A DNA stretch of 64,000 nucleotides. It comes from Terriglobia bacterium (GTDB lineage Bacteria > Acidobacteriota > Terriglobia > 20CM-2-55-15). Positions 20,763 to 31,994 of this stretch are shown here, in pieces. The stretch spans positions 736,001 through 800,000 of the forward strand of contig CBDAOY010000006.1 of NCBI GenBank assembly GCA_965198225.1, read 5' to 3'. The notes beneath the pieces were generated by a model. It was not told where the DNA came from and made no database searches. It was given only the letters and a program-made list of their open reading frames with translations. The first letter of the stretch is position 1. The number at the start of each line of letters is the position of its first letter. The position numbers and the translations under genes were made by a program.

Positions 20763-22247
20763 TTGACAGAAGAAAACCTGAAGATCGCCGTATTCGTCGA
20801 CTTCGACAACATCGAAATCGGAGTCAAGAGTACGCTGAACAAGAATTTTGACATCGGCGCGGTTCTCGAGGCCATCAAAGAACGCGGCGAGATCGTGACG
20901 AAAGTTGCCTACGGAGATTGGAAACGTTCCGGGGATTACGGGCGTGCCATGGGGCAGCATGCCATCCACATGGTCCAGAGGAACCTGACGCCCGGGGGCG
21001 ACAAGAATGGGGCCGACATCAACCTGGCGCTCGACGCGTTGGAGATGGCGTTCATCCGAGACCACATCAATGCTTTTGTTATCGTCGGTGGCGACAGCGA
21101 TTTCATTACGCTGGTCGAAAAACTCAAGCAATACGACAAGAAGGTGTTCGTCGTCGGAGGTCGCGCCTTCACCAGCGCAATCCTCCAGAAGAACTGCCAC
21201 GAGTTCATCGCGTATGAGAACCTCATCCGCTCGCAGTCTTCCGGACGGAAGCAATCGCGTTCGCGAAGCGCGAGCGAAGCACCGTTGGAGAAGGCCGTTC
21301 CGCTCGTACGTCGCGCGCTGAAGATCCTGACGGATCGCGAGGTCTCCCCGCAGTTGGGCCTGCTGAAGAGCACACTGCTCCAGCTCGATTCGACGTTTTC
21401 GGAGCGGGACTATGCCGCCACGACATTTCGCGATTTCATGGAAAAGCTCGCCCGGACAGGCGTGATCAACCTGAAGCAGGTTGATCGCTCGTGGCTGGTG
21501 GAGCTCCGCGAGGAGAAATCCGACAACGGCGAACGGGATCGGACGACTCGCAGCAGGAAGGCGAAGGCGTCGTCTCGGAGGAAGCCGGAGGGTCCGGGAC
21601 CCGACAACGGCGAGGAGCCTGCCGGTGCCGAGAATGGTTCGGCCCGGCAGGAAGAGGGGGTCCAGGTGATCCGATCGGTTGTAGAGACGATCGATGCGAC
21701 CCAGAAATGGCCGATGTACCTGCGGAACGTCAAACAGCTCCTCAAGTCCGCCCGCCCCGACTTCGACGAGAAGGAATACGGATTCTCGAGTCTGCTGGAC
21801 GCCGTGCGACAGAGCCAGAGGGCCGGTGTTTTCCGGCTCGAGCGGAACCGGCAGGGTGTGCTCCGGATATTCCCGGGTGAGATGTCAAAAGCCCCGGAGC
21901 TGGCGGCCTCCGACACGCCGCGGGAAGCGGAAGCCTCTGTAGACGAGTCAGTTACGTCCAGTGAGGTTGTGCCCGAAGCCGTGGAACCCGGATTGGATCA
22001 GGCGGAGGCTGTTCCCGAGGCCGCGGCCGCCGGGAAGCCGACCCGGAAACGAAAGACCACGGCGACCAAGACTCGCAAGACGACGAAGAAAGCCGCCAAG
22101 AAGGTCACGAAAACTACCAGGAAGAAGACTACCCGGACGACGAAGAAGGCCACCAAGACAACTCGCCGCGCCGCCAAGAAGGAGCCTGCCGCAGCCGACA
22201 AGCCCGTAGAGCCCGCGGTCGCCGCGAAACTTGAGGATCAAGTGTAG
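20763..22247 (+). CDS. NYN (PIN-fold) domain protein with two LOTUS/OST-HTH domains and a Lys/Thr-rich tail
   Basis: VFVDFDN, KNGADINLALDA, GGDSDF; FSERDY..TFRDF and FDEKEYGFSSL; TKKAAKK tail. Confidence 0.88.
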   Translation: MTEENLKIAVFVDFDNIEIGVKSTLNKNFDIGAVLEAIKERGEIVTKVAYGDWKRSGDYGRAMGQHAIHMVQRNLTPGGDKNGADINLALDALEMAFIRDHINAFVIVGGDSDFITLVEKLKQYDKKVFVVGGRAFTSAILQKNCHEFIAYENLIRSQSSGRKQSRSRSASEAPLEKAVPLVRRALKILTDREVSPQLGLLKSTLLQLDSTFSERDYAATTFRDFMEKLARTGVINLKQVDRSWLVELREEKSDNGERDRTTRSRKAKASSRRKPEGPGPDNGEEPAGAENGSARQEEGVQVIRSVVETIDATQKWPMYLRNVKQLLKSARPDFDEKEYGFSSLLDAVRQSQRAGVFRLERNRQGVLRIFPGEMSKAPELAASDTPREAEASVDESVTSSEVVPEAVEPGLDQAEAVPEAAAAGKPTRKRKTTATKTRKTTKKAAKKVTKTTRKKTTRTTKKATKTTRRAAKKEPAAADKPVEPAVAAKLEDQV

Positions 22248-22495
22248 GTGCGCTCTATGAGCGCACGTCTTTCGGTTCGAACACTCTGCGGTCCTAGACC
22301 CTTGCCGTCGAAAACATCTTGAGGGAACTCTTCGGAGACAGGTTCAACCTGTTGGAATCGGTCGGCCCGCCGGCGTGCCGATGAAAAGGGTCTCGGGAAT
22401 GAAGAGGGCGAAACTTCAAGATCGGGTGTAGGTGCGCTCTATGAGCGCACATCGTTTCGGCTCGAAGAATGTGCGGTCATAGACCGCACCTACAC
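22242..22495. repeat. REP elements (22242-22300 degenerate, 22426-22495 complete doublet)
   Basis: GTGTAGGTGCGCTCTATGAGCGCAC...GTGCGGTCATAGACCGCACCTACAC. Confidence 0.9.
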
Positions 22496-22527: not shown

Positions 22528-23139
22528 CTAATGGACGGCGAAGTGGACCGCCTTCAGGACTTCGTCGACGATTGCGGGATCAAACTGCGTTCCCTTGCCG
22601 ATGATGAGCTGCTCGGCCGCTTCCCGCTCGGTCCGTCGCGTGCGATAAGACCGTTCGCTCGTCATTGATTCATAGGCATCCAGGACAGCGATAACCCGCG
22701 CCGCAAAGGGTATGGCGTCCCCTTCGAGACCGTCGGGATAACCCCTGCCGTCGTACCGCTCGTGGTGGTGCAGCACGACGTCGGCAATGTGGGCAAAGTC
22801 ATCGGCATGCTCCAGGGCCTCGAATCCCAGCCGGGCGTGTCCCTGCATGATGATCCGCTCATCCACGGTGAGGATGCCGGGCTTGTGGAGGATAGGGTCG
22901 GGTATGGCGATGGTTCCCAGGTCGTGCAGGTGAGCCGCCGCCTCGGCAACAGCAATTTCGTCAGCCGACAGTTCCATCCTTTGGCAGACGTCTCGCGCAA
23001 GAAGCCGCATGCGCTCGCTGTGTAGCCCGACTGTGCGGTCGCGCATCCGGACCAGGTTGGCGAACGTTCCGGTCTGCGCCTCGGCCGGGTCTTTTGTAAG
23101 CCTGTCTAGCAACGTCGACATACTGAGTTCCTCGTCCAT
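22528..23139 (-). CDS. Stand-alone HD-GYP phosphodiesterase (copy 3, divergent)
   Basis: HSERM, LHDLG, HHHERYDGRGYP, RSYR, GTQFDP. AGGAG RBS before ATG 23139. Confidence 0.92.
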   Translation of the reverse strand: MDEELSMSTLLDRLTKDPAEAQTGTFANLVRMRDRTVGLHSERMRLLARDVCQRMELSADEIAVAEAAAHLHDLGTIAIPDPILHKPGILTVDERIIMQGHARLGFEALEHADDFAHIADVVLHHHERYDGRGYPDGLEGDAIPFAARVIAVLDAYESMTSERSYRTRRTEREAAEQLIIGKGTQFDPAIVDEVLKAVHFAVH

Positions 23140-23252
23140 TCTCCTGCGCCCCGTTGGACGCCTGATGAGTGTTGAAGAGAGCCGAGAGCCCTTGTAAAAG
23201 AGTCCCCGGCGTGTGGGGCGCGACCTGCGCGGAATCCCCGCTTCACCTTTGC

Positions 23253-23280
23253 TTATCGGCCCGAACACCCCGGAGCATTA
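23253..23280 (-). promoter_or_regulatory. Putative sigma-28 promoter of HD-GYP copy 3
   Basis: TAAT-N16-GCCGATAA. Confidence 0.55.
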
Positions 23281-23293
23281 ACTTTTTTTCGGG

Positions 23294-23732
23294 TCACGGG
23301 GCCATGCTTTCATCCAGCGACATCCGAACGACTTCCCGGATCCGGGCGATCGGTTCGATTCTTCCTGTCGTTGTTTCGATGAGGAACGCCGGCAATATCC
23401 TGTAGCTCTTGAGGATCCCGACGCCCAGCTGTTCCAGTTCAGAGGCGAGGTCTTCCTTCAGTTCGGGTCGCGTGCGCACCAGGATGCGGACTGCCTGGTC
23501 GGAAGTTCCATCCTGATCCCGAATCCCTTCCACCATCTTCCGGAGCGCTTCGTCGAGTTTGTCCGTGAATGTCCCTTCGGATTCTGCTGAACCGGAGTCG
23601 GTCATTGTGTTTCCCGTTTGTGATTGTGCCGCGGCCGGGACCCAGCCCGAAAGGACCAGGCTGACCACGACCGTCCGGGACCCAGCCCGAAAGGACCAGG
23701 CTGACCACGACCGTGTAAAAAATCTTCTTCAT
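23294..23732 (-). pseudogene. Secreted subtilase-propeptide-only (I9-like) protein, frameshifted by a 40-bp duplication
   Basis: ATG 23732 MKKIFYTVVVSLVLSGWVP. Perfect tandem repeat 23635-23674/23675-23714. The downstream frame KLDEALRK..VRILVRTRP..VVRMSLD resembles the propeptides of the neighbouring S8 proteases. Confidence 0.7.
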
Positions 23733-23782
23733 GATTGTCCCATCCTGGTCAGAGCGGAGATCGCTCCAACCTTGACTGCGGT

Positions 23783-23812
23783 TTCGGAAAGCAGCCGAGG
23801 CCGCATTCCGAA
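23783..23812 (-). terminator. Stem-loop after HD-GYP copy 2
   Basis: TTCGGAAAGCAGCCGAGGCCGCATTCCGAA, homologous to 26616-26648. Confidence 0.5.
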
Positions 23813-23823
23813 GGTAAAGGTTG

Positions 23824-24426
23824 TCAGTGAAGCTGGACCCGGCAACCGATGACTTCGAGCAAAGCGTCGACGACATCGGGGTCGAACTGAGTCCCTTTTC
23901 CACCCAGCAACTCAATGCCGGCGGCCTGTATCGTCCGTCCCTTACGGTACGGACGATCCGTCGTCAGCGCGTCGTACGCATCCACTACAGCGATGACGCG
24001 CGAGCCGAACGGAATGTTGTCCCCAGCGCGATGGCTCGGATAACCCGTGCCGTCGTACCACTCGTGGTGATGGAGCACGATCGGGGCGAGATGGCTGAAC
24101 TCGTCCATCTCGCGCAGGGCTGCCGCGCCCAAGGCCGAGTGGGTCTGCATGATCTCCCACTCGTCGGCGCTGAGGCGGCCCGGTTTCCGCAGGATTTCAT
24201 CCGGGATGCCGATCTTGCCGATATCGTGCAGGTACGCAGCGGCCTCGATCGTTTGAGTGTCTGCCGGACCGAGGCCGAATTGCTCGCAGATCTTGCTTGC
24301 GAGATCCAGCACCCGGTCGCTGTGAATCCCCGTGTAGGGGTCCCGGACCCGGAGCAGGCTCAGGAACGATTTCGCCTGCCCCGCGATCTGGTCTAACTGA
24401 AGTTCTTGCATGATTACAGTCGACAT
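23824..24426 (-). CDS. Stand-alone HD-GYP phosphodiesterase (copy 2)
   Basis: RDPYTGIHSDRV, LHDIGK, HHHEWYDGTGYP, DRPYR, GTQFDP. Confidence 0.95.
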   Translation of the reverse strand: MSTVIMQELQLDQIAGQAKSFLSLLRVRDPYTGIHSDRVLDLASKICEQFGLGPADTQTIEAAAYLHDIGKIGIPDEILRKPGRLSADEWEIMQTHSALGAAALREMDEFSHLAPIVLHHHEWYDGTGYPSHRAGDNIPFGSRVIAVVDAYDALTTDRPYRKGRTIQAAGIELLGGKGTQFDPDVVDALLEVIGCRVQLH

Positions 24427-24440
24427 CGGAACCTCCTGCC

Positions 24441-26451
24441 TTAAAAGTCGTCCCAGGTAATGGTCTTACCCCAGACGATGGTTTCCGCGTCGACCTCGTC
24501 CCAGACGATGGTCTTACCCCAAACGATGGTTTCGCCTTCGACCTCTTCCCAGGTGATGGTCTTGCCCCAGACAATGGTTTGGCCGTAGGACGTCTCGTTG
24601 TAGTCGAAGTTGTCGGCTTCATAGAGGCCCTTGCCCCAAACGATGGTCTCGCTCCAAACGGCCGGATATCCGGAAATCACGTTGGAGTAGTCCAGGCCCA
24701 CGCCGTTGTTGAGGAGCCAGTAGTCTCCTTCAGCGGTCGTGGCGTCGACGTTGGCGGCCAGGTTGACCGCACCGGCAGCGTTCATGTAGCCGGCGCCCAC
24801 CGCGTACGGGTTGCCGAAGTTGCCCTCGGCCGTGTACATCAGGATGGCCTTGACCTGGTTCGGCGTCAGGTACGGGTTCTGCTCCAGCATCAATGCGACG
24901 GCGCCGGCGACGACCGGGGCCGACATGCTGGTGCCGCTGAGCCACATATAATTGTTGTCCACAACGATCTGCGGGTGGTTGGTCGCCAGAGCGTTTCCGG
25001 CGGCGCGGGCCGCAACGATCTGGGTTCCCGGAGCCGCGATGTCGGGTTTGATCAACTCTTCAAACCGCGTCGGTCCCCGAGAGCTGTAAGAGGCGACTGT
25101 ATCGTCGGACCGGGATGGCGTATCCCAGGTCGTCATCGCACCGACCGTGAGGGCCGACGCTTCGGTACCCGGGCTCGTGATCGCACCGTATTGGATCTCG
25201 CCATCCGCATTCTTACCGCCGTTGCCGGCCGACACGACGACGACGATACCGGCATCGACTGCCGCGCGAACCATCAAGGTCATCGGATCGGTGTCGGCCG
25301 ACTCGTACGGCATGTGGCCGAGCGAGAGGTTGATGACGCGGATGTTGTAGATGTCGCGATTCAAGATTGCCCATTCGAGCGCCTCGATGACGTCGCTGGT
25401 CTGGCCGCCGCCGCTGGCGCTCAAGACCTTCAAGTCGATCAGGTGGGCCCCTGGCGCCATGCCGGCGTACTGTCCGCCCGACGCCATGCCGTTACCGGCA
25501 ACGATCCCGGCCACGTGGGTGCCGTGCCCGAACTCGTCCCCGCCGGTGTTACCGCCCGTGAAATCCACCGTGTGGACCACGTTGGGCAGATCGACATGAC
25601 CGCCGATGCCGCTGTCGATGACAGCGATTCCGATGCCCGCGCCGGTGACCCCGTATGCCAGGGCCGCATCTAAGGCGCCGGTGACGGTGGCCAGCTCACC
25701 GGGCGTGCCGTTTCCGTTCTGCGACAGTTCGATATTCGCATCCAGGTGCAAGGAGGCGACGTCGTAGTTGTCGGCCAGCGTGTCGAGCAGATCGGCCGGA
25801 ACTTCGACCACGATCCCGTCAAACAGCTGGAACTTGCCGATGCCGTCCTGGATCGCGGCGCCCTGGCTGGAAAGGTTCTCCAGGCTCGCTTTGTAGCCCG
25901 GCTGTGCCCGAATGATGACCCGAACGGTTTCGACTTCCGTGTTGACGGAATCGATCTTCTCGTTTATCGCTTTTTCAAACTTCTTCCGGATCTCATTGTC
26001 GATCTTCGAGTCGATGCGGGCCAACGTCTCTGCCAGCTTCGCCTGCCGTTTGGCCTTCTCTACGGCGGCCTTGTCGGCAGCCTCATTTTTCAGCGCGGCG
26101 GCCTTGTCGGCAGCCTCATTTTGCTCAGCGGCGGTCTTATCGGCAGCCGCCATTTCCAACACGGCGGCCGTCTCCAACGTGGCGGCCGTCTCGTTAGCCA
26201 CCATTTCGAACTCGGCAGCCGCTATTTCCAACGTGGCGGCCGTCTCGTTAGCCACCATTTCGAACTCGGCGGCCTTGTCGGCAGCCTCATTTTCCAGCGC
26301 GGCGGCCTTGTCGGCAGTCTCCATTTCCAACGCGGAGGCTGTCTCGGCAGCCTGTTCCATGATTTTTGCGAGGCCGAGCTGCTGGGCGCTCGCGGTATAC
26401 GGCGCGACCAGCGTCAGGCTCAACATTAAGAGTTATAAGTAAACGCTTCAT
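24441..26451 (-). CDS. S8 subtilase with acidic N-terminal coiled coil and C-terminal TIxW repeats (copy A), +1 frameshift in the signal peptide
   Basis: VIDSG, HGTHVAG, SAGN, GTSMSAP. The RBS-linked ATG 26451 is 25 nt from ATG 26426 (24 nt in the paralog); the long frame starts at 26426. Confidence 0.88.
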
Positions 26452-26520
26452 TAAGCTCCTCCAAATGAAAGGGACGGGAAGACGGGGTCTGCAGCGCAGA
26501 CTCTCCCGCTTCATTCGTAC

Positions 26521-26547
26521 GTATCGACGGGAATAGCCAAAGGTTTA
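26521..26547 (-). promoter_or_regulatory. Putative sigma-28 promoter of S8 copy A
   Basis: TAAA-N15-GTCGATAC. Confidence 0.6.
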
Positions 26548-26615
26548 GTATTTTTTGGCAGGCGAGTGAGGATTTCGCGGAAGAACGCTCGGTTTTCTGG
26601 AAGGACAATGGAGGG

Positions 26616-26648
26616 TTCGGAAAGCGGCCAAGGCGACCGCTTTCCGAA
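26616..26648 (-). terminator. Stem-loop after HD-GYP copy 1
   Basis: TTCGGAAAGCGG-N9-CCGCTTTCCGAA, 12-bp perfect stem. Confidence 0.65.
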
Positions 26649-26659
26649 GGTTAAGGTTG

Positions 26660-27262
26660 TCAGTGAAGCTGGACCCGGTAACCGATGACCTCGAGCAGGG
26701 CGTCGACGACATCGGGATCGAACTGGGTTCCCTTGCCGGAGAGCAACTCGATGCCGGCCACCTCGATCGACTGCGCCTTGCGGTACGGACGGTCCGACGA
26801 TAGCGCGTCGTAGGCATCCAGTACGGCGATGACGCGCGAGCCGAACGGGATGTTCTCGCCGGCGCGCCGGCTCGGGTAACCCGTGCCGTCGTACCGCTCG
26901 TGGTGATGCAGCACGATCGGGGCGAGATGGCTGAACTCGTCCATCTCTCTCAGGGCTGCCGCGCCCAGGGCCGAGTGGGTCTGCATGATCTCCCACTCGT
27001 CGGCAGTGAGGCGGCCCGGTTTCCGGAGGATGTCGTCCGGGATGGCGATCTTGCCGATATCGTGCAGGTACGCACCGGCTTCAATTGTCTGGGTGTCTGC
27101 CGGACCGAGTCCGAACTGCTCGCACATCTTGCTTGCGAGATCCAGCATCCGGTCGCTGTGAACCCCCGTGTAGGGGTCCCGGACCCGGAGCAGGCTCAGG
27201 AACGACTTGGCCTGCCCCGCGATCTGGTCTAACTGAAGTTCTTGCATGATTACAGTGGACAT
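26660..27262 (-). CDS. Stand-alone HD-GYP phosphodiesterase (copy 1)
   Basis: LHDIGK, HHHERYDGTGYP; GGAGG RBS. Same length as and near-identical to 23824..24426. Confidence 0.95.
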   Translation of the reverse strand: MSTVIMQELQLDQIAGQAKSFLSLLRVRDPYTGVHSDRMLDLASKMCEQFGLGPADTQTIEAGAYLHDIGKIAIPDDILRKPGRLTADEWEIMQTHSALGAAALREMDEFSHLAPIVLHHHERYDGTGYPSRRAGENIPFGSRVIAVLDAYDALSSDRPYRKAQSIEVAGIELLSGKGTQFDPDVVDALLEVIGYRVQLH

Positions 27263-27274
27263 CGGGACCTCCAC

Positions 27275-29281
27275 CTAAAAGTCATCCCAGGTAATGGTCT
27301 TACCCCAGGTGATGGTCTCAGCGTCGACTTCATCCCAGGCGATGGTCTTGCCCCAGGTGATGGTTTCGCCTTCGACTTCGTCCCAGACGATGGTCTTGCC
27401 CCAGACGATGGTCTCGCCCTCGACTTCTTCCCAGGTGATGGTCTTGCCCCAGACGATGGTTTCGCTGTAGGACGTCTCGTTGTAGTCGAAACCGTCGACC
27501 GAGTAGAGGCCCTTGCCCCAGACGATGGTCTCCGCCCAGACAGCGGGGAAACCGGCGATCACGTTGGAGTAGTCCAGGCCCACCCCGTTATTGAGGAGCC
27601 AGTAGTCTCCCACGGCGGTCGTGGCGTCGACGTTGGCGGCCAGGTTGACCGCGCCTGCGGCGTTCATGTAGCCGGCACCCACTTCAAATGGGTTGCCCTT
27701 GCCGGCCTCGGCCGTGTACATCAGGATGGCCTTGACCTGGTTGGGCGTCAGGTAGGGGTTCTGCTCCAGCATCAACGCGACGGCGCCCGAGACTACCGGA
27801 GCCGCCATGCTGGTGCCGCTGAGCCACATGTAGTTGTCATCGACGACGACCTGCGGGTAGTTCTTCGCAAGATCGTTCTTGTCGCCCCTGGGGGCTACGA
27901 TCTGGGTTCCCGGAGCCGCGATGTCGGGCTTGATCAACTCCTCGAACCGCGTCGGTCCCCGAGAGCTGTAACCGGCGACCGTGTCATCGGCCCGGCTGGG
28001 GGTATCCCAGGTCGTCATCGCGCCGACGGTCAGCGCGGACGCTTCGGTACCGGGACTCGTGACGCCGCCGTAGACGATCTCGCCCTCGATCCTGCCGGCG
28101 TTACCGGATGAAACCACGACGACGATGCCCGCGTCGACGGCCGCGCGGACCATCAACGTCAGCGGATCGGTATCGGCCGACTCGTAAGGCATGTGGCCGA
28201 GCGAGAGGTTGAGGATGCGGATGTTGTACTGGTCGCGATTCAGTAGCGCCCATTCGATGGCTTCGATGACGTCGCTCGCGCTGCCACCACCGTTATTCTT
28301 GAGCACTTTGAGGTCGATCAGGTGGGCTCCCGGCGCCATGCCGGCGTACTGTCCCCCCGACGCCATGCCGTTACCGGCAATGATCCCGGCCACGTGGGTG
28401 CCGTGCCCGAATCCGTCGCGCCGGTTGTTCACTCCGTTCTGGCTGGCGTTGGTGGTGAAGTCCTCGGTATGGACGACGTTGGGAAGGTCGATGTGGTCGT
28501 CGTCGATGCCGCTGTCGATGACGGCGATGCCGATACCTGCGCCGGTGACCCCGTATGCCTGGGCCGCCTCTAGGGCGCCCGTGACGGTGGCCAACTCACC
28601 GGGTAGGTTACCCCCCGTAGCCGTGGATCCGTTTCCATTGTTGGACTGGCCGTTGCCCGCACCGTTTCCATTCTGCGACAGTTCGATGTCCGCATCCAGG
28701 TGCACGGAGGCGACGGCAAAATGGTCGGCCAGCGTGTCGAGCAGATCGGCCGGAACTTCGACCACGATCCCGTCGAACAGCTTGAACTTGTTGACGCCGC
28801 CCTTGATGTTAGCGCCCAAGCTGGAAAGCCTCGCCAGGTTCGATTTACTGCCTGGCTGGGGCCGAATGATGACCCGAACGGTCTCGACCTCCGCGTTGAC
28901 GGAATCGATCTTCTTGTTTTTCGCTTTCTTGAATTTCTTCAGGACCTCGTTGTCGACTTTCTTAGAGATCCGCGCCAGGGTGTCGGCCAGCTTCTGCTTG
29001 GCGGCGGCCAGGGCTGCCTGAGCCTTCGCAAGCCGCTTTTCCGCTTTGGCGTTTTGCTTGGCGTTCGCATTCTTTTTGTTGGCAGTTTTTTCAGCTTTGG
29101 CTTCGGCCCTGGCGACGCCTTTCTCCGCCTGGTTGACCTTCTTGTTAGCCTTCTTGACTTGGTTGGCCCCTTTCTTGGCCGCCTGTTCGATGATCTTAGT
29201 AAGGTTGGGTCCTTGGGCGCTGACGCCATCGGGCGCGACCAGCGTCAGGCTCAACATCATAGTTATTAGTAAACGCTTCAT
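27275..29281 (-). CDS. S8 subtilase with basic N-terminal coiled coil and C-terminal TIxW repeats (copy B)
   Basis: Signal peptide MKRLLITMML..VSA; VIDSG, HGTHVAG, SSGN, GTSMAAP; tail of four 16-aa ETIxWGKTIxW units. Confidence 0.93.
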   Translation of the reverse strand: MKRLLITMMLSLTLVAPDGVSAQGPNLTKIIEQAAKKGANQVKKANKKVNQAEKGVARAEAKAEKTANKKNANAKQNAKAEKRLAKAQAALAAAKQKLADTLARISKKVDNEVLKKFKKAKNKKIDSVNAEVETVRVIIRPQPGSKSNLARLSSLGANIKGGVNKFKLFDGIVVEVPADLLDTLADHFAVASVHLDADIELSQNGNGAGNGQSNNGNGSTATGGNLPGELATVTGALEAAQAYGVTGAGIGIAVIDSGIDDDHIDLPNVVHTEDFTTNASQNGVNNRRDGFGHGTHVAGIIAGNGMASGGQYAGMAPGAHLIDLKVLKNNGGGSASDVIEAIEWALLNRDQYNIRILNLSLGHMPYESADTDPLTLMVRAAVDAGIVVVVSSGNAGRIEGEIVYGGVTSPGTEASALTVGAMTTWDTPSRADDTVAGYSSRGPTRFEELIKPDIAAPGTQIVAPRGDKNDLAKNYPQVVVDDNYMWLSGTSMAAPVVSGAVALMLEQNPYLTPNQVKAILMYTAEAGKGNPFEVGAGYMNAAGAVNLAANVDATTAVGDYWLLNNGVGLDYSNVIAGFPAVWAETIVWGKGLYSVDGFDYNETSYSETIVWGKTITWEEVEGETIVWGKTIVWDEVEGETITWGKTIAWDEVDAETITWGKTITWDDF

Positions 29282-29352
29282 TAAGCTCCTCCGATTACAA
29301 GGGGACAGGGAGACGGCGGTCTGTCGCGCAGACTTCCCCGATTCATTCGTTC

Positions 29353-29379
29353 GTATCGGCGCGAATAGCCAAAGGTTTA
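29353..29379 (-). promoter_or_regulatory. Putative sigma-28 promoter of S8 copy B
   Basis: TAAA-N15-GCCGATAC. Confidence 0.7.
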
Positions 29380-29408
29380 GTTTTTTTGTGTCCCGGATGA
29401 GGAAAAGC

Positions 29409-29435
29409 TAAAGTCAAAGGGTTCCGGGCCGATAA
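29409..29435 (+). promoter_or_regulatory. Putative sigma-28 promoter of the HD-GYP/GGDEF gene
   Basis: Perfect TAAA-N15-GCCGATAA. Confidence 0.75.
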
Positions 29436-29463
29436 AGATGGAAACCCTTGGAGGTGGACTGCG

Positions 29464-31725
29464 TTGGGTAAGGAAAATACCTATAAGGATCTGCCGATCG
29501 GCGCCCGCATCGCGATTGCCGTGTCCGTTACGGTCGGTGTGGGACTATTCTCTATCTCGCTGATCCGTTTCGACTGGACCCAGTACTGGGCGTTTTTGTT
29601 CATCCTGGCGGTAGCCGGCGTCACGGCCAACACCACGGTTCGGCTACTGGGCGGCTCGTCGCTGTCCCTTCTGACTTCCGTTGTCTTGATGTCGTTGATT
29701 TCATTGGGTCCGGATGGGGCCGTGATGATCGCCATCTGTGGGGTGGTCTTCCAGACCGCAGTGCCGGCCCGGACGGTCTTTTCCTACACTCTGGCCTTCA
29801 ACGTCGGGATGATCGGTGCGACGGTATGGGGCGCCGGGCGCGCGTACCAATTGCTCAGCGATTACGCTTCCGCAGGCTCGCTGGTCGCACTGCTGGTGGC
29901 GTCGCTCGTCTATTATTTTGGCAACTCCGTCTTCGTTTCGATGATCGTGGGGCTGTCGAGCCGAAAGTCGCCGTTCAAGATCTGGCACGACCACTTCCTG
30001 TATACCGCTCCGGCATTCTTCATGGCCGGGGTTCTGGCCTTCGCGGCCAATGAGATCTTGAAGTCGGTCCACTTCAGTGTGCTGCTGGTGCTCGCGCCGA
30101 TCCTTTATTTCAGCTACTACTCCTACAAGGTCTACCTGGAGAACCTCCAGAGCGAGAAGAAACATGCCGAGGACATGGCCCTGCTCCACGGGTCGACGCT
30201 CGAGACTCTCGTCCTGGCGATCGACGCGAAAGATCGGAACCAGGGACACGTCGTCCGTGTCCAGAAATACGCCAGGGAACTCGCCGTAGCCATGAAGCTC
30301 GACGAAGAAGAAGTCGAAGGGATTGCTGCCGCCGCCCTGCTTCACGATATCGGGAAGCTGGCCGTGCCCGAGCATATCATTAAGAAGAAGGGCGCACTGA
30401 CCGCCGAGGAGATGGCGAAGATGAGGCTGCACCCGGAAACGGGCGCCGACATCATCGCCAATATCAAGTTCGCGTATCCGGTCTCCGACACCATCCGTCA
30501 CCACCACGAGCGCTTCGACGGCTCAGGCTATCCCGCGGGACTCAAGGGTGAAGACATCCCGCTCGGCTCGCGGGTGCTGGCTGTTGTGGACTCGTGCGAA
30601 AGCTACATGTCGCGTCACCAGGGTCGAGCCGACGATTCCATGGCGATGCTGGAGCGAGATTCAGGAACTCATTTCGACGCCACGGTCGTGGCGGCATGGA
30701 AAGAGATCTACCGCGACGTCCTTGATTCCGGAGTCGACACGACCGCGACGCCGGATCAGATGGCACCTTTCCAGGACATCGGGCGAGCAGCGTCGGAAGT
30801 CGAGACGCTCGACGAACTGGCGGAGACGGTCAACGCGATGGATTCGGTTCAAGAGATCGCGGCGACCGCGACCCGGATGCTGGAAGGGATCGTGCCCAGC
30901 ACCGCAGTTTTCTGGCTACCCAACGGTGACGAAATCGTGACCTGTGTTGAGGAGGGAGAAGACGCGCAGATGTTGCCGATCGGAGCCGGTGTGTCGGGCT
31001 GGGTGGCCGCCGAGCGCAGTTCGTGCGTGAACATGACGGCGAACTTCGGTCCATACAAGGGTTCCCGCGTCGTTGCGGTCCCGGTTCTGTTCGAAGACGA
31101 GCTTCTCGGAGTGCTGTCGGTCTACCGCGGCAACCCGGAGTTCAGCGACGACGAGGTCCGGCTCGTGACCGCTGCCGCCGACCGTATTGCGAGCAGCCTC
31201 CAGAGCGCCAGCGCGCTCGAAGTCGTGCGGCGGGACGCCACGTCGGACCGCCTGACCGGTCTGGCAAACCGCAGGGCGCTGGAGAAGGCTTTCGAAACGA
31301 TCGCGGGCGGGTTCTCTCTCGTCCTGATCGACATCAACGCGTTCAAGGCTGTCAACGACACCTTCGGTCATCAGGCTGGTGATGACGCCCTAGTACGGAT
31401 TGCCGAGCACCTGCAGACTACGTTCGATTCCTCGGACATCGTCTGTCGGCTGGGCGGGGACGAGTTCCTCGTTGCCAGTGAGGAATCTTCCTTCGCGCTG
31501 CGGAGAAAGGTCCGGGAATTCAGGAAGATGGTGGCCCAGGATCCGGTCTTCGAACGGTACCAGAGCCTCGGATTCGGCGTCAGCTGGGGCGTGGCCGCTG
31601 CCCCCGACGACGGCCCCGACCTCGAGAAGGTGACCGCCGTAGCCGACGGACGGATGTACAACCTCAAGACCCGGATCAAGCAGAAAGTTCGCCTGGCCTT
31701 TCCTATGGCCCACGCCAGCCGGTAA
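29464..31725 (+). CDS. Membrane-sensor HD-GYP-GAF-GGDEF protein (c-di-GMP metabolism)
   Basis: About 6-7 N-terminal TM segments; LHDIGK..HHERFDGSGYP; GAF-like IGAGVSGWVA..AVPV; DRLTGLANRR, FKAVNDTFGHQAGD, RLGGDEF. Confidence 0.93.
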   Translation: MGKENTYKDLPIGARIAIAVSVTVGVGLFSISLIRFDWTQYWAFLFILAVAGVTANTTVRLLGGSSLSLLTSVVLMSLISLGPDGAVMIAICGVVFQTAVPARTVFSYTLAFNVGMIGATVWGAGRAYQLLSDYASAGSLVALLVASLVYYFGNSVFVSMIVGLSSRKSPFKIWHDHFLYTAPAFFMAGVLAFAANEILKSVHFSVLLVLAPILYFSYYSYKVYLENLQSEKKHAEDMALLHGSTLETLVLAIDAKDRNQGHVVRVQKYARELAVAMKLDEEEVEGIAAAALLHDIGKLAVPEHIIKKKGALTAEEMAKMRLHPETGADIIANIKFAYPVSDTIRHHHERFDGSGYPAGLKGEDIPLGSRVLAVVDSCESYMSRHQGRADDSMAMLERDSGTHFDATVVAAWKEIYRDVLDSGVDTTATPDQMAPFQDIGRAASEVETLDELAETVNAMDSVQEIAATATRMLEGIVPSTAVFWLPNGDEIVTCVEEGEDAQMLPIGAGVSGWVAAERSSCVNMTANFGPYKGSRVVAVPVLFEDELLGVLSVYRGNPEFSDDEVRLVTAAADRIASSLQSASALEVVRRDATSDRLTGLANRRALEKAFETIAGGFSLVLIDINAFKAVNDTFGHQAGDDALVRIAEHLQTTFDSSDIVCRLGGDEFLVASEESSFALRRKVREFRKMVAQDPVFERYQSLGFGVSWGVAAAPDDGPDLEKVTAVADGRMYNLKTRIKQKVRLAFPMAHASR

Positions 31726-31766: not shown

Positions 31767-31994
31767 GTGTAGGTGCGCTCTATGAGCGCACACGTTTCGG
31801 CCCGAAGAATGTGCGGTCATAGACCGCCCCTACACTTGCGTGTCGACATTGTCCGTAATGGTTACGGAATTCTTCGCCCGGGTGTAGGTGCGCTCTATGA
31901 GCGCACATCTTTTCGGTTCGAAGGATGTGTGGTCATAGACCGCCCCTACACTTGCGTGTCGACATTGCCCGTAATGTCATAGACCGCACCTACA
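31767..31994. repeat. Two REP doublets plus a partial arm (~115-bp duplication)
   Basis: Doublets at 31767-31835 and 31882-31951, each followed by TTGCGTGTCGACATTG. Confidence 0.9.

Follow-up and report, generated by a model that had tools for sequence, protein, structure and literature searches.

A locus in the window, the 64,000-nucleotide stretch of a Terriglobia bacterium contig analyzed here, brings together two subtilases of peptidase family S8 (S8A and S8B), stand-alone HD-GYP enzymes predicted to act on cyclic di-GMP (c-di-GMP) and a membrane HD-GYP-GAF-GGDEF protein (the sensor), with sigma-28-type promoter motifs in front of them. We propose, giving the idea about an even chance of being right, that this locus is a flagellar-regulon module of the motile phase in which a secreted protease is tied to c-di-GMP turnover and the repetitive C-terminal tail of the protease is structural. 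The core of the module would be a conserved pair, an AprX-like S8 subtilase with a hexapeptide-repeat C-terminus and a MASE9-like membrane HD-GYP(-GAF-GGDEF) enzyme. In this lineage the subtilase would have acquired a translationally coupled stand-alone HD-GYP gene, after which the two-gene unit was duplicated in tandem, with a propeptide-like gene (PRO_C) and a third HD-GYP gene (HDGYP_C) located beside the duplicated units. Promoters of the flagellar sigma factor FliA are predicted to drive S8A-HDGYP_A, S8B-HDGYP_B, HDGYP_C and the sensor and, because of these promoters, the proteins of the module would be made along with flagellin once the hook-basal body is complete. The phosphodiesterases would hold c-di-GMP low during the motile phase, and the secreted subtilase would meanwhile remodel surface, matrix or exported proteins. 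Its tail may be a structural beta-repeat serving stability, oligomerisation, binding or export, rather than an array of signal peptides.

Gene content, duplication and promoters of the locus

Six minus-strand genes lie between 29281 and 22528, in the order S8A, HDGYP_A, S8B, HDGYP_B, PRO_C and HDGYP_C (Table 1). The surrounding genome comprises 6.4 Mb in 9 contigs, and its closest public relatives are Acidobacteriota metagenome-assembled genomes. A sequence-only reading of the window had described two S8 proteases with intact D/H/S motifs, tails of TIxW motifs with acidic spacers, an HD-GYP gene within ~15 bp of each protease, a divergent membrane HD-GYP-GAF-GGDEF gene, and sigma-28-like motifs before both proteases, the third HD-GYP gene and the sensor. 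All of these features were recovered here, the proteases by Pfam, motifs and a 16-sequence alignment, the tails with nine motifs in S8A and seven in S8B, the sensor by its Pfam domains and the promoters by a consensus scan. The two protease and HD-GYP units described there are both real but not independent of one another, as set out below.

Peptidase_S8 (PF00082) matches S8A at E = 1.3e-54 and S8B at E = 3.6e-51 (185.9 and 174.6 bits; cut-off 21.8). The triad motifs DSG, HGTH and GTSM are present in both proteins (DSG256, HGTH293 and GTSM489 in S8A), and all 16 aligned family sequences share D256, H293, the oxyanion Asn N394 and S491. AlphaFold models the catalytic domain of S8A with a predicted local distance difference test score (pLDDT) of 75-95, and the model also takes in its propeptide and, towards the N-terminus, a long helical region. 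S8A with HDGYP_A and S8B with HDGYP_B constitute a 2.83-kb tandem duplication of 83-90% nucleotide identity, with the promoter inside the duplicated segment. Since both derive from this single old event, the two protease units amount to one invention and not to an independent pair. Synonymous divergence (dS) between the units is ~0.56, and the ratio of nonsynonymous to synonymous divergence (dN/dS) for S8A against S8B is 0.28 overall, 0.19 in the catalytic domain and 0.07 in the tail (47 codons); for HDGYP_A against HDGYP_B it is 0.15. Both copies of the duplication are under purifying selection.

The HD-GYP genes follow their subtilases closely, starting 12 nt after the S8A stop (27262) and 14 nt after the S8B stop (24426), and GGAGG precedes the ATG of each. 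HD_5 matches all three stand-alone HD-GYPs and the sensor at E ≤ 2e-36, and the HD and HHExxDGxGYP motifs are kept in all four (HDLG and HHERYDGRGYP in HDGYP_C). The likely start of HDGYP_C is MDEEL at 23139; a longer open reading frame (ORF) with a GTG start extends to 23268 and overlaps the gene's own promoter. In the syntenic locus L003, the HD-GYP after the subtilase shares 72% identity with HDGYP_A, and the locus's second HD-GYP shares 64% with HDGYP_C. Judged by their motifs, the stand-alone HD-GYPs are predicted c-di-GMP phosphodiesterases.

The sensor combines HD_5, GAF and GGDEF domains (PF00990, 105.7 bits; GGDEF at residue 664), and by eye the RxxD inhibitory site five residues upstream of GGDEF is absent. 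Its membrane domain (residues 1-230) has ~8 hydrophobic segments joined by very short loops. MASE9 (PF20972) scores 18.0 bits on the whole protein and 19.7 bits on the domain alone, with a cut-off of 24.3, and is detected at E ≤ 0.01 in 8 of 12 orthologous membrane domains linked to S8 genes (best 9.9e-8). F112, N113 and N154 are conserved in an alignment of 12 membrane domains, where both Asn residues are invariant. On these sequence features the domain is classed as MASE9-like, and it fits the published description. A second full-length MASE9-like HD-GYP-GAF-GGDEF paralogue with 27% identity is encoded elsewhere in the genome (G000 C9:382400-384763), and a separate gene at C8:160460-161041 matches the membrane domain only, at 37% over residues 3-192.

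The promoter consensus used here, TAAA-N15-GCCGATAA, comes from work on E. coli and B. subtilis. It matches the window 8 times against 1.75 expected, and 8 or more matches arose in 0 of 100 shuffles. The site before the sensor is perfect, lies 28 nt before the start codon and is one of four perfect sites in the 6.4-Mb genome; that before HDGYP_C has a 16-nt spacer and is separated from the MDEEL start by 113 nt. Of the 38 genome-wide sites with at most one mismatch, three fall within 6183 nt at the locus (Poisson P = 8e-6). The genome encodes FliA (TIGR02479, 262.6 bits; cut-off 189.6), and the same motif stands upstream of the flagellin, FliD and FlgM genes (Pfam-verified). Promoter elements are also kept before the L003 subtilase, where the 5' untranslated region (UTR) has diverged, and the S8A, S8B and L003 promoters align; a sigma-28-like site also directly precedes the sensor gene of L087, with 1 mismatch, and those of L006 and L011, with 2 mismatches. 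Motif, spacing, the presence of FliA and the use of the motif at flagellar genes together make the genes of the locus predicted members of the FliA regulon. Scans for sigma-70 promoters and terminators at the locus gave nothing above shuffles.

Elsewhere in the genome, a perfect sigma-28-type site precedes a 232-aa GGDEF protein (G000 C9:1018009-1018707), and further sites precede a GAF-HD-GYP protein (C6:168993-170723, with a copy on C1), an unrelated 889-aa subtilase (C8:978394-981063) and a PAS protein (C6:872304-872678). The predicted FliA regulon seems rich in c-di-GMP enzymes.

PRO_C is frameshifted, in this assembly only, by a 40-bp tandem duplication at 23632-23711 (repeat family D12). 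The contig of public run X1 omits exactly 40 nt at this point and that of run X2 falls short of the window by 41 nt, and close relatives hold intact 132-133-aa homologues with a signal peptide. Pfam and BLAST gave no signal for PRO_C, a BLAST comparison with S8A was empty, and Inhibitor_I9 matched neither PRO_C nor the propeptide stretch of S8A itself at E ≤ 10. In a profile-profile alignment with hhalign, residues 42-130 of PRO_C align with residues 105-199 of S8A (probability 95.4%, E = 1.7e-8), and PRO_C weakly matches the propeptide chain of Tk-subtilisin (2z57_B, E = 0.44). Because its profile aligns to the subtilase-family propeptide, the earlier label of a propeptide-only gene stands. 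PRO_C would probably act on the subtilases as a secreted inhibitor or as an aid to their folding.

The S8B copy differs from S8A at its start. One extra base puts its Shine-Dalgarno-linked ATG (26451-26449) out of frame, so the long S8B ORF begins within the signal peptide; contigs of both runs, X1 and X2, carry the same start-region sequence as the window. An S8B-type orthologue, P0006, has an intact signal peptide and a tail that has moved to another frame, and the S8B copy appears to have been damaged differently in the two lineages. The N-terminal regions of the paralogues (compared over 26031-26378 in S8B and 28900-29200 in S8A), for which AlphaFold predicts long helices, are oppositely charged, with a net +21 over residues 25-130 of S8A and a net -15 over residues 17-145 of S8B. 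The S8B region is made of 33-nt repeats, and a 39-nt length variant is found at 26171-26211 in contigs of two runs.

Read by eye, a short hairpin is present in the 5' UTRs of S8A and S8B (29300-29345 and 26470-26515, minus strand), where the differences between the copies (GTCTGCGCGACAGAC and GTCTGCGCTGCAGAC) preserve pairing, and 10-bp hairpins lacking a T-run lie 3' of HDGYP_A and HDGYP_B. A search upstream of the subtilases for riboswitches or other RNA families returned no match near any gathering score. A role in anti-phage defence, through an IetS-like S8 protein, was considered and rejected, as it yielded just generic S8 and HD domain matches and no partner genes.

Table 1. Genes and predicted promoters of the subtilase and HD-GYP locus (window coordinates).
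Feature	Position	Strand	Description
S8A	27275-29281	-	Intact secreted subtilase, 668 aa; Pfam, motifs, AlphaFold model
HDGYP_A	26660-27262	-	Stand-alone HD-GYP, 200 aa, second gene of the S8A operon; HD_5 E = 2e-36
S8B	24441-26426	-	Subtilase paralogue, 661 aa; acidic, repeat-rich N-terminal helical region; tail of 7 TIxW motifs
HDGYP_B	23824-24426	-	Stand-alone HD-GYP, 200 aa, second gene of the S8B unit; HD_5 E = 4.2e-37
PRO_C	23294-23731	-	Small secreted homologue of the subtilase propeptide; frameshifted in this assembly
HDGYP_C	22528-23139	-	Predicted stand-alone HD-GYP phosphodiesterase gene, ~203 aa; HD_5 E = 3e-38
Sensor	29464-31725	+	753 aa; MASE9-like membrane domain, then HD-GYP, GAF, GGDEF; divergent from S8A
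Sigma-28 promoter of sensor	29409-29435	+	No mismatch to the consensus; adjoins the S8A promoter back to back
Sigma-28 promoter of S8A-HDGYP_A operon	29353-29379	-	TAAA-N15-GCCGATAC, 1 mismatch
Sigma-28-like promoter before S8B	26521-26547	-	TAAA-N15-GTCGATAC, 2 mismatches
Sigma-28-like promoter before HDGYP_C	23253-23280	-	TAAT-N16-GCCGATAA, 1 mismatch; genome site C6:759280(-)

The tryptophan-repeat tail

The TIxW motifs of S8A and S8B are separated by the spacers EEVEG, DEVEG or DEVDA and fall into 16-residue units (6+6+4 in S8A) such as ETIVWGKTITWEEVEG, with a DNA repeat period of 48 nt. Repeat number varies between assemblies, P0002 being S8A less one 16-residue unit. The acidic spacers are restricted to close relatives of the window proteins. 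Most relatives carry contiguous hexapeptides without them (DTIIWG, NIVWGE, DQALWG repeated ~30 times, DGALWG, EAVLWS), and the motif [DEN]-x-[IVA]-[IVL]-W-[GSTA] is common to distant species. Tail length among relatives ranges from ~3 to more than 30 units, and five relatives have repeats lacking Trp altogether (DGVLVS, DGVITG, DGVIAG).

A tree built from 42 catalytic domains (with L019 and L065 omitted as too short) places the Trp-less tails in a single clade nested within the Trp-type proteins (Shimodaira-Hasegawa-like approximate likelihood ratio support of 99). Compared with solved left-handed beta-helix proteins, a Trp-less tail gives a best E of 1.7e-6 and 128 chains at E ≤ 1, and its Pfam Hexapep match is below threshold. 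The Trp-less tail aligns with the DGALWG tails, for which matches are marginal (best E = 0.015) and beta-helix proteins make up 10 of 12. From these similarities we infer that the tail is a beta-repeat module related to hexapeptide solenoids. A C-terminal autotransporter barrel, which came to mind given that close relatives end in Phe, was reasoned out, the strands having just 4-6 residues and the tail ~100.

The tail was found on subtilases alone. Among proteins of similar length a tail search found 11, all of them S8, and an exhaustive search of 1.84 billion representatives gave 44 matches, 31 with S8 sequence; none was a non-subtilase protein carrying the tail, the 13 without S8 being short fragments or unrelated repeat ORFs. 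A full-text literature search found nothing relevant on the Trp-hexapeptide motif or on the pairing of a subtilase with a MASE9-HD-GYP protein. As a repeat module, the Trp-hexapeptide tail is undescribed, and its occurrence is restricted to a single subtilase family.

This confinement, together with the strong conservation of the tail between paralogues, would also fit a C-terminal pro-sequence of the aqualysin type, which would assist export or folding across the Gram-negative envelope and then be removed, with no part in signalling. C-terminal extensions of subtilases are described as serving stability, substrate binding or secretion (PMC3158780), and the aromatic residue that ends close relatives is in keeping with such a role. 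The wide range of repeat numbers, however, is unusual for a dedicated export domain, and the tail has no sequence similarity to any characterised pro-sequence. We consider this explanation unlikely.

Subtilase-sensor pairing across Acidobacteriota

The pairing of subtilase and sensor extends well beyond the window. A search of contigs from the subtilase side gave 24 loci, including 11 acidobacterial-type relatives, of which 4 that end at or inside the subtilase were left out. A sensor homologue adjoins the subtilase in 6 of the 7 with DNA beyond it, divergently in L003 and downstream on the same strand in L004, L006, L009, L011 and L019; in L008 a SNF2 gene takes the place of the sensor. A close subtilase is encoded in 87 of 300 sampled genomes of the phylum, the window's own genome not counted, and at least 29 of the 87 hold the pair. 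At the best 29 subtilase loci the sensor lies within the 1.5-kb flank in 9, and cross-listing adds three more (at least 12 of 29). Cross-listed matches give at least 21 subtilase-sensor pairs in 19 genomes, all on the same strand with the subtilase upstream. The gap is 56-300 nt where ORFs were read, and 2 of the 21 have 1.9-2.3 kb between the matched parts. Of the unpublished genomes, G049 accounts for 1 of the 21 pairs and, like G152, belongs to the 87 with a subtilase; G024 figures solely in the set of 276 genomes in which some HD-GYP was matched.

The pairing spans tail types, and L084 and L101 show it with Trp-less tails. Adjacent pairs are dispersed across the subtilase tree, where two clades, one of 7 rows and one of 3, have every member linked. 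Linkage of W-tail subtilases to such sensors, whose absence would have refuted the sequence-only reading, is present and conserved far beyond this genome. The conserved pairing of a subtilase with a MASE9-HD-GYP protein is undescribed, and its component families are all known. FliA is encoded in 102 of 301 genomes and in just 9 of the 19 with cross-listed pairs (10 without), from which it follows that the pair is older and wider than its flagellar wiring.

Approached from the sensor side, a subtilase is found at 5 of the 29 best sensor loci, where other neighbours are a sigma-54 activator at 6 (4 of these 6 Pfam-checked), an NPP-type phosphodiesterase at 2 and an unknown gene at 3. Sigma-54 enhancer-binding proteins recur beside MASE9-HD-GYP genes (at L044, L050, L051 and L056 among other loci), and a TPR-containing sigma-54 activator follows the subtilase-sensor pair at L009:11579-14278 and L011:11805-14495. 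This recurrence may point to a FleQ-like protein that reads the c-di-GMP signal.

Several of our observations weigh against a motile-phase module with a structural tail. Co-regulation alone fails to explain why the subtilase stands directly upstream of the sensor across lineages, and the pair is not tied to flagella, given that just 9 of the 19 pair genomes have FliA. Across the wider sample, 38 of 88 genomes with the subtilase and 64 of 213 without it encode FliA (odds ratio 1.8), a comparison among relatives that are not independent. The 38 genome-wide sites with at most one mismatch compare with ~34 expected from base composition by our own arithmetic, and with the count so near expectation only the position and clustering of the sites carry weight. 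No sigma-28-like site at up to two mismatches was found in L004, L009 or L019. No RNA run was found to contain the locus, and its FliA dependence is a prediction from motif matches. S8B lacks a proper start and signal peptide. As for the tail, that of S8A gave no match in Pfam or NCBIfam and none beyond chance in the PDB; AlphaFold assigns its residues 555-668 a pLDDT of 26-41 with a short strand per TIxW, and a pure NTIVWG tail folded alone yields a mean pLDDT of 41.9 and short strands only. Low pLDDT from a shallow alignment is no evidence of disorder. A Trp at an inward-pointing position of a left-handed beta-helix is hard to accommodate.

The motile-phase module leaves the tight gene order in genomes without FliA unexplained, and for this reason we retain a reading in which the MASE9-like enzyme has the subtilase as its extracytoplasmic arm, the pair forming one signalling device and the FliA wiring being a local add-on. 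The subtilase might cut ligand peptides from environmental or cell-surface proteins, or the sensor might hold and release the subtilase in the manner of LapD-LapG or YfiR-YfiN. The constant order on one strand in 21 of 21 cross-listed pairs and their short gaps agree with such a device, as do the persistence of the pair without FliA and across tail types and its scattered distribution over the subtilase tree with the two fully linked clades. The catalytic triad, invariant in all 16 sequences, indicates that proteolysis matters. For MASE9 itself no ligand is known, and binding is presumed to take place inside the membrane, according to the family description (bioRxiv 10.1101/2021.11.05.467447). 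On the other side, most of the best sensor loci have neighbours other than a subtilase, the loops of the membrane domain are very short, and no fusion of subtilase and HD-GYP was found, HD or GGDEF families being present in 0 of the 120 best longer relatives (a weak negative). On balance protease-coupled sensing strikes us as rather improbable, though worth keeping in view.

A narrower form, in which short hydrophobic peptides made by the subtilase, possibly its own Trp-hexapeptides, enter the membrane as the ligand of a MASE-type domain, seems to us quite unlikely. Were it true, extracellular proteolysis or cell density would set c-di-GMP. The proposal of the sequence-only reading is a quorum-like circuit in which the subtilase cuts its own tail to Trp peptides (of the ETIVWG or KTITW type) that the MASE9-like domain senses to set c-di-GMP. 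The near-identical short units with acidic spacers in this lineage, the strong purifying selection on the tail, the conserved linkage to a membrane sensor and the lack of a confident fold would all suit a peptide precursor, and subtilases process signal peptides elsewhere, as Epr and Vpr do in making CSF (PMC8767453). Most relatives, however, have contiguous hexapeptides with neither spacers nor an obvious cleavage context, and core peptides flanked by processing sites and conserved in relatives, as a multi-copy precursor would have, were not found. The Trp-less tails of the same family resemble an ordinary left-handed beta-helix, sensors pair with Trp and Trp-less tails alike, and a motif common to distant species offers no species-specific signal. 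With ordinary roles on record for subtilase C-terminal extensions, the view of the tail as a multi-copy pheromone precursor gains no support, and we hold it to be very unlikely. A co-fold of the sensor membrane domain with residues 551-668 of S8A scored 0.00, a result that speaks neither for nor against binding.

Genomic surroundings and known systems

Several genes around the locus are syntenic with L003: that for an NYN-LOTUS (OST-HTH) protein whose long C-terminal tail is rich in Lys and Thr (20763-22247), and zinc-ribbon, acyl-CoA synthetase-like and TPR genes. An element of 75-95 nt flanks the locus on both sides (22421-22495, 31767-31860 and 31882-31976). It has imperfect terminal inverted repeats (GTGTAGG...CCTACAC) and occurs in hundreds of copies in the genome, where a 300-nt query containing two copies gave 1111 blastn matches; metagenome contig depth shifts upward ~30-fold at this element. 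It looks like a repetitive extragenic palindromic (REP) or miniature inverted-repeat transposable element (MITE)-like repeat.

A subtilase under a flagellar sigma factor has a precedent in Epr of B. subtilis, a SigD-regulon S8 protease with a dispensable repeat-rich C-terminus that degrades secreted FlgM (PMC8767453). The likeness to the S8 proteins of a motile-phase module lies in transcription with the flagellar sigma factor, the repeat-rich C-terminus and the link to motility, and Epr can also process peptides that act as signals (PMC8767453). The Epr tail, in contrast, is Lys-rich with 44-residue repeats, no c-di-GMP enzyme is adjacent and the host is Gram-positive; the two proteins were compared at the level of the S8 domain only.

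PdeH of E. coli is class-3. Phosphodiesterases of c-di-GMP under FliA control are known, and E. coli PdeH/YhjH and Pseudomonas putida BifA are enzymes of the late flagellar regulon that lower c-di-GMP during swimming (PMC5300878, PMC4866697), as proposed here for the HD-GYPs. Those enzymes are of the EAL type, whereas the present locus has three stand-alone HD-GYPs and a bifunctional membrane enzyme, with predicted co-transcription with a protease. If our proposal is right, the locus extends to Acidobacteria and to HD-GYP enzymes the rule that flagellar sigma factors switch on c-di-GMP phosphodiesterases. To our knowledge, signalling in Acidobacteria is almost unstudied.

The subtilase tail can be set beside two known kinds of structure. 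It shares a six-residue period with left-handed beta-helix proteins, which the Trp-less tails of the same family match as given above; the S8A tail differs in its 16-residue units, in the Trp at the aliphatic core position and in giving no sequence match. It resembles the extensions of aqualysin I and other subtilases in standing at the C-terminus of a secreted Gram-negative subtilase, and aqualysin needs its C-terminal pro-sequence to be secreted and loses it afterwards (PMC3158780). The passages of that source drawn on here describe no such repeat structure, and there is no sequence similarity between the aqualysin extension and the S8A tail.

Among membrane c-di-GMP proteins, those with an extracytoplasmic partner offer a comparison. 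In the LapD-LapG and YfiB-YfiN-YfiR operons a membrane c-di-GMP protein is linked with one that is periplasmic or secreted; in the former, this partner, LapG, is a cysteine protease. LapD combines a large periplasmic domain with enzyme domains that are degenerate; the window sensor is almost loop-free and its enzyme motifs are intact. We know of no ligand or partner for MASE9, and of few for any MASE-type membrane domain. A further likeness is to proteins built as MASE9-HD-GYP-GAF-GGDEF, with which the sensor agrees in domain order, eight segments, short loops and conserved Asn and aromatic positions, as far as the relevant part of their description goes (Galperin and Chou, bioRxiv 10.1101/2021.11.05.467447). 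It differs from them in its score, which is below the family cut-off, and in its protease neighbour, no protease partner being named in that part of the description. A protease gene directly upstream of MASE9-HD-GYP genes across the phylum provides a concrete candidate partner for MASE9.

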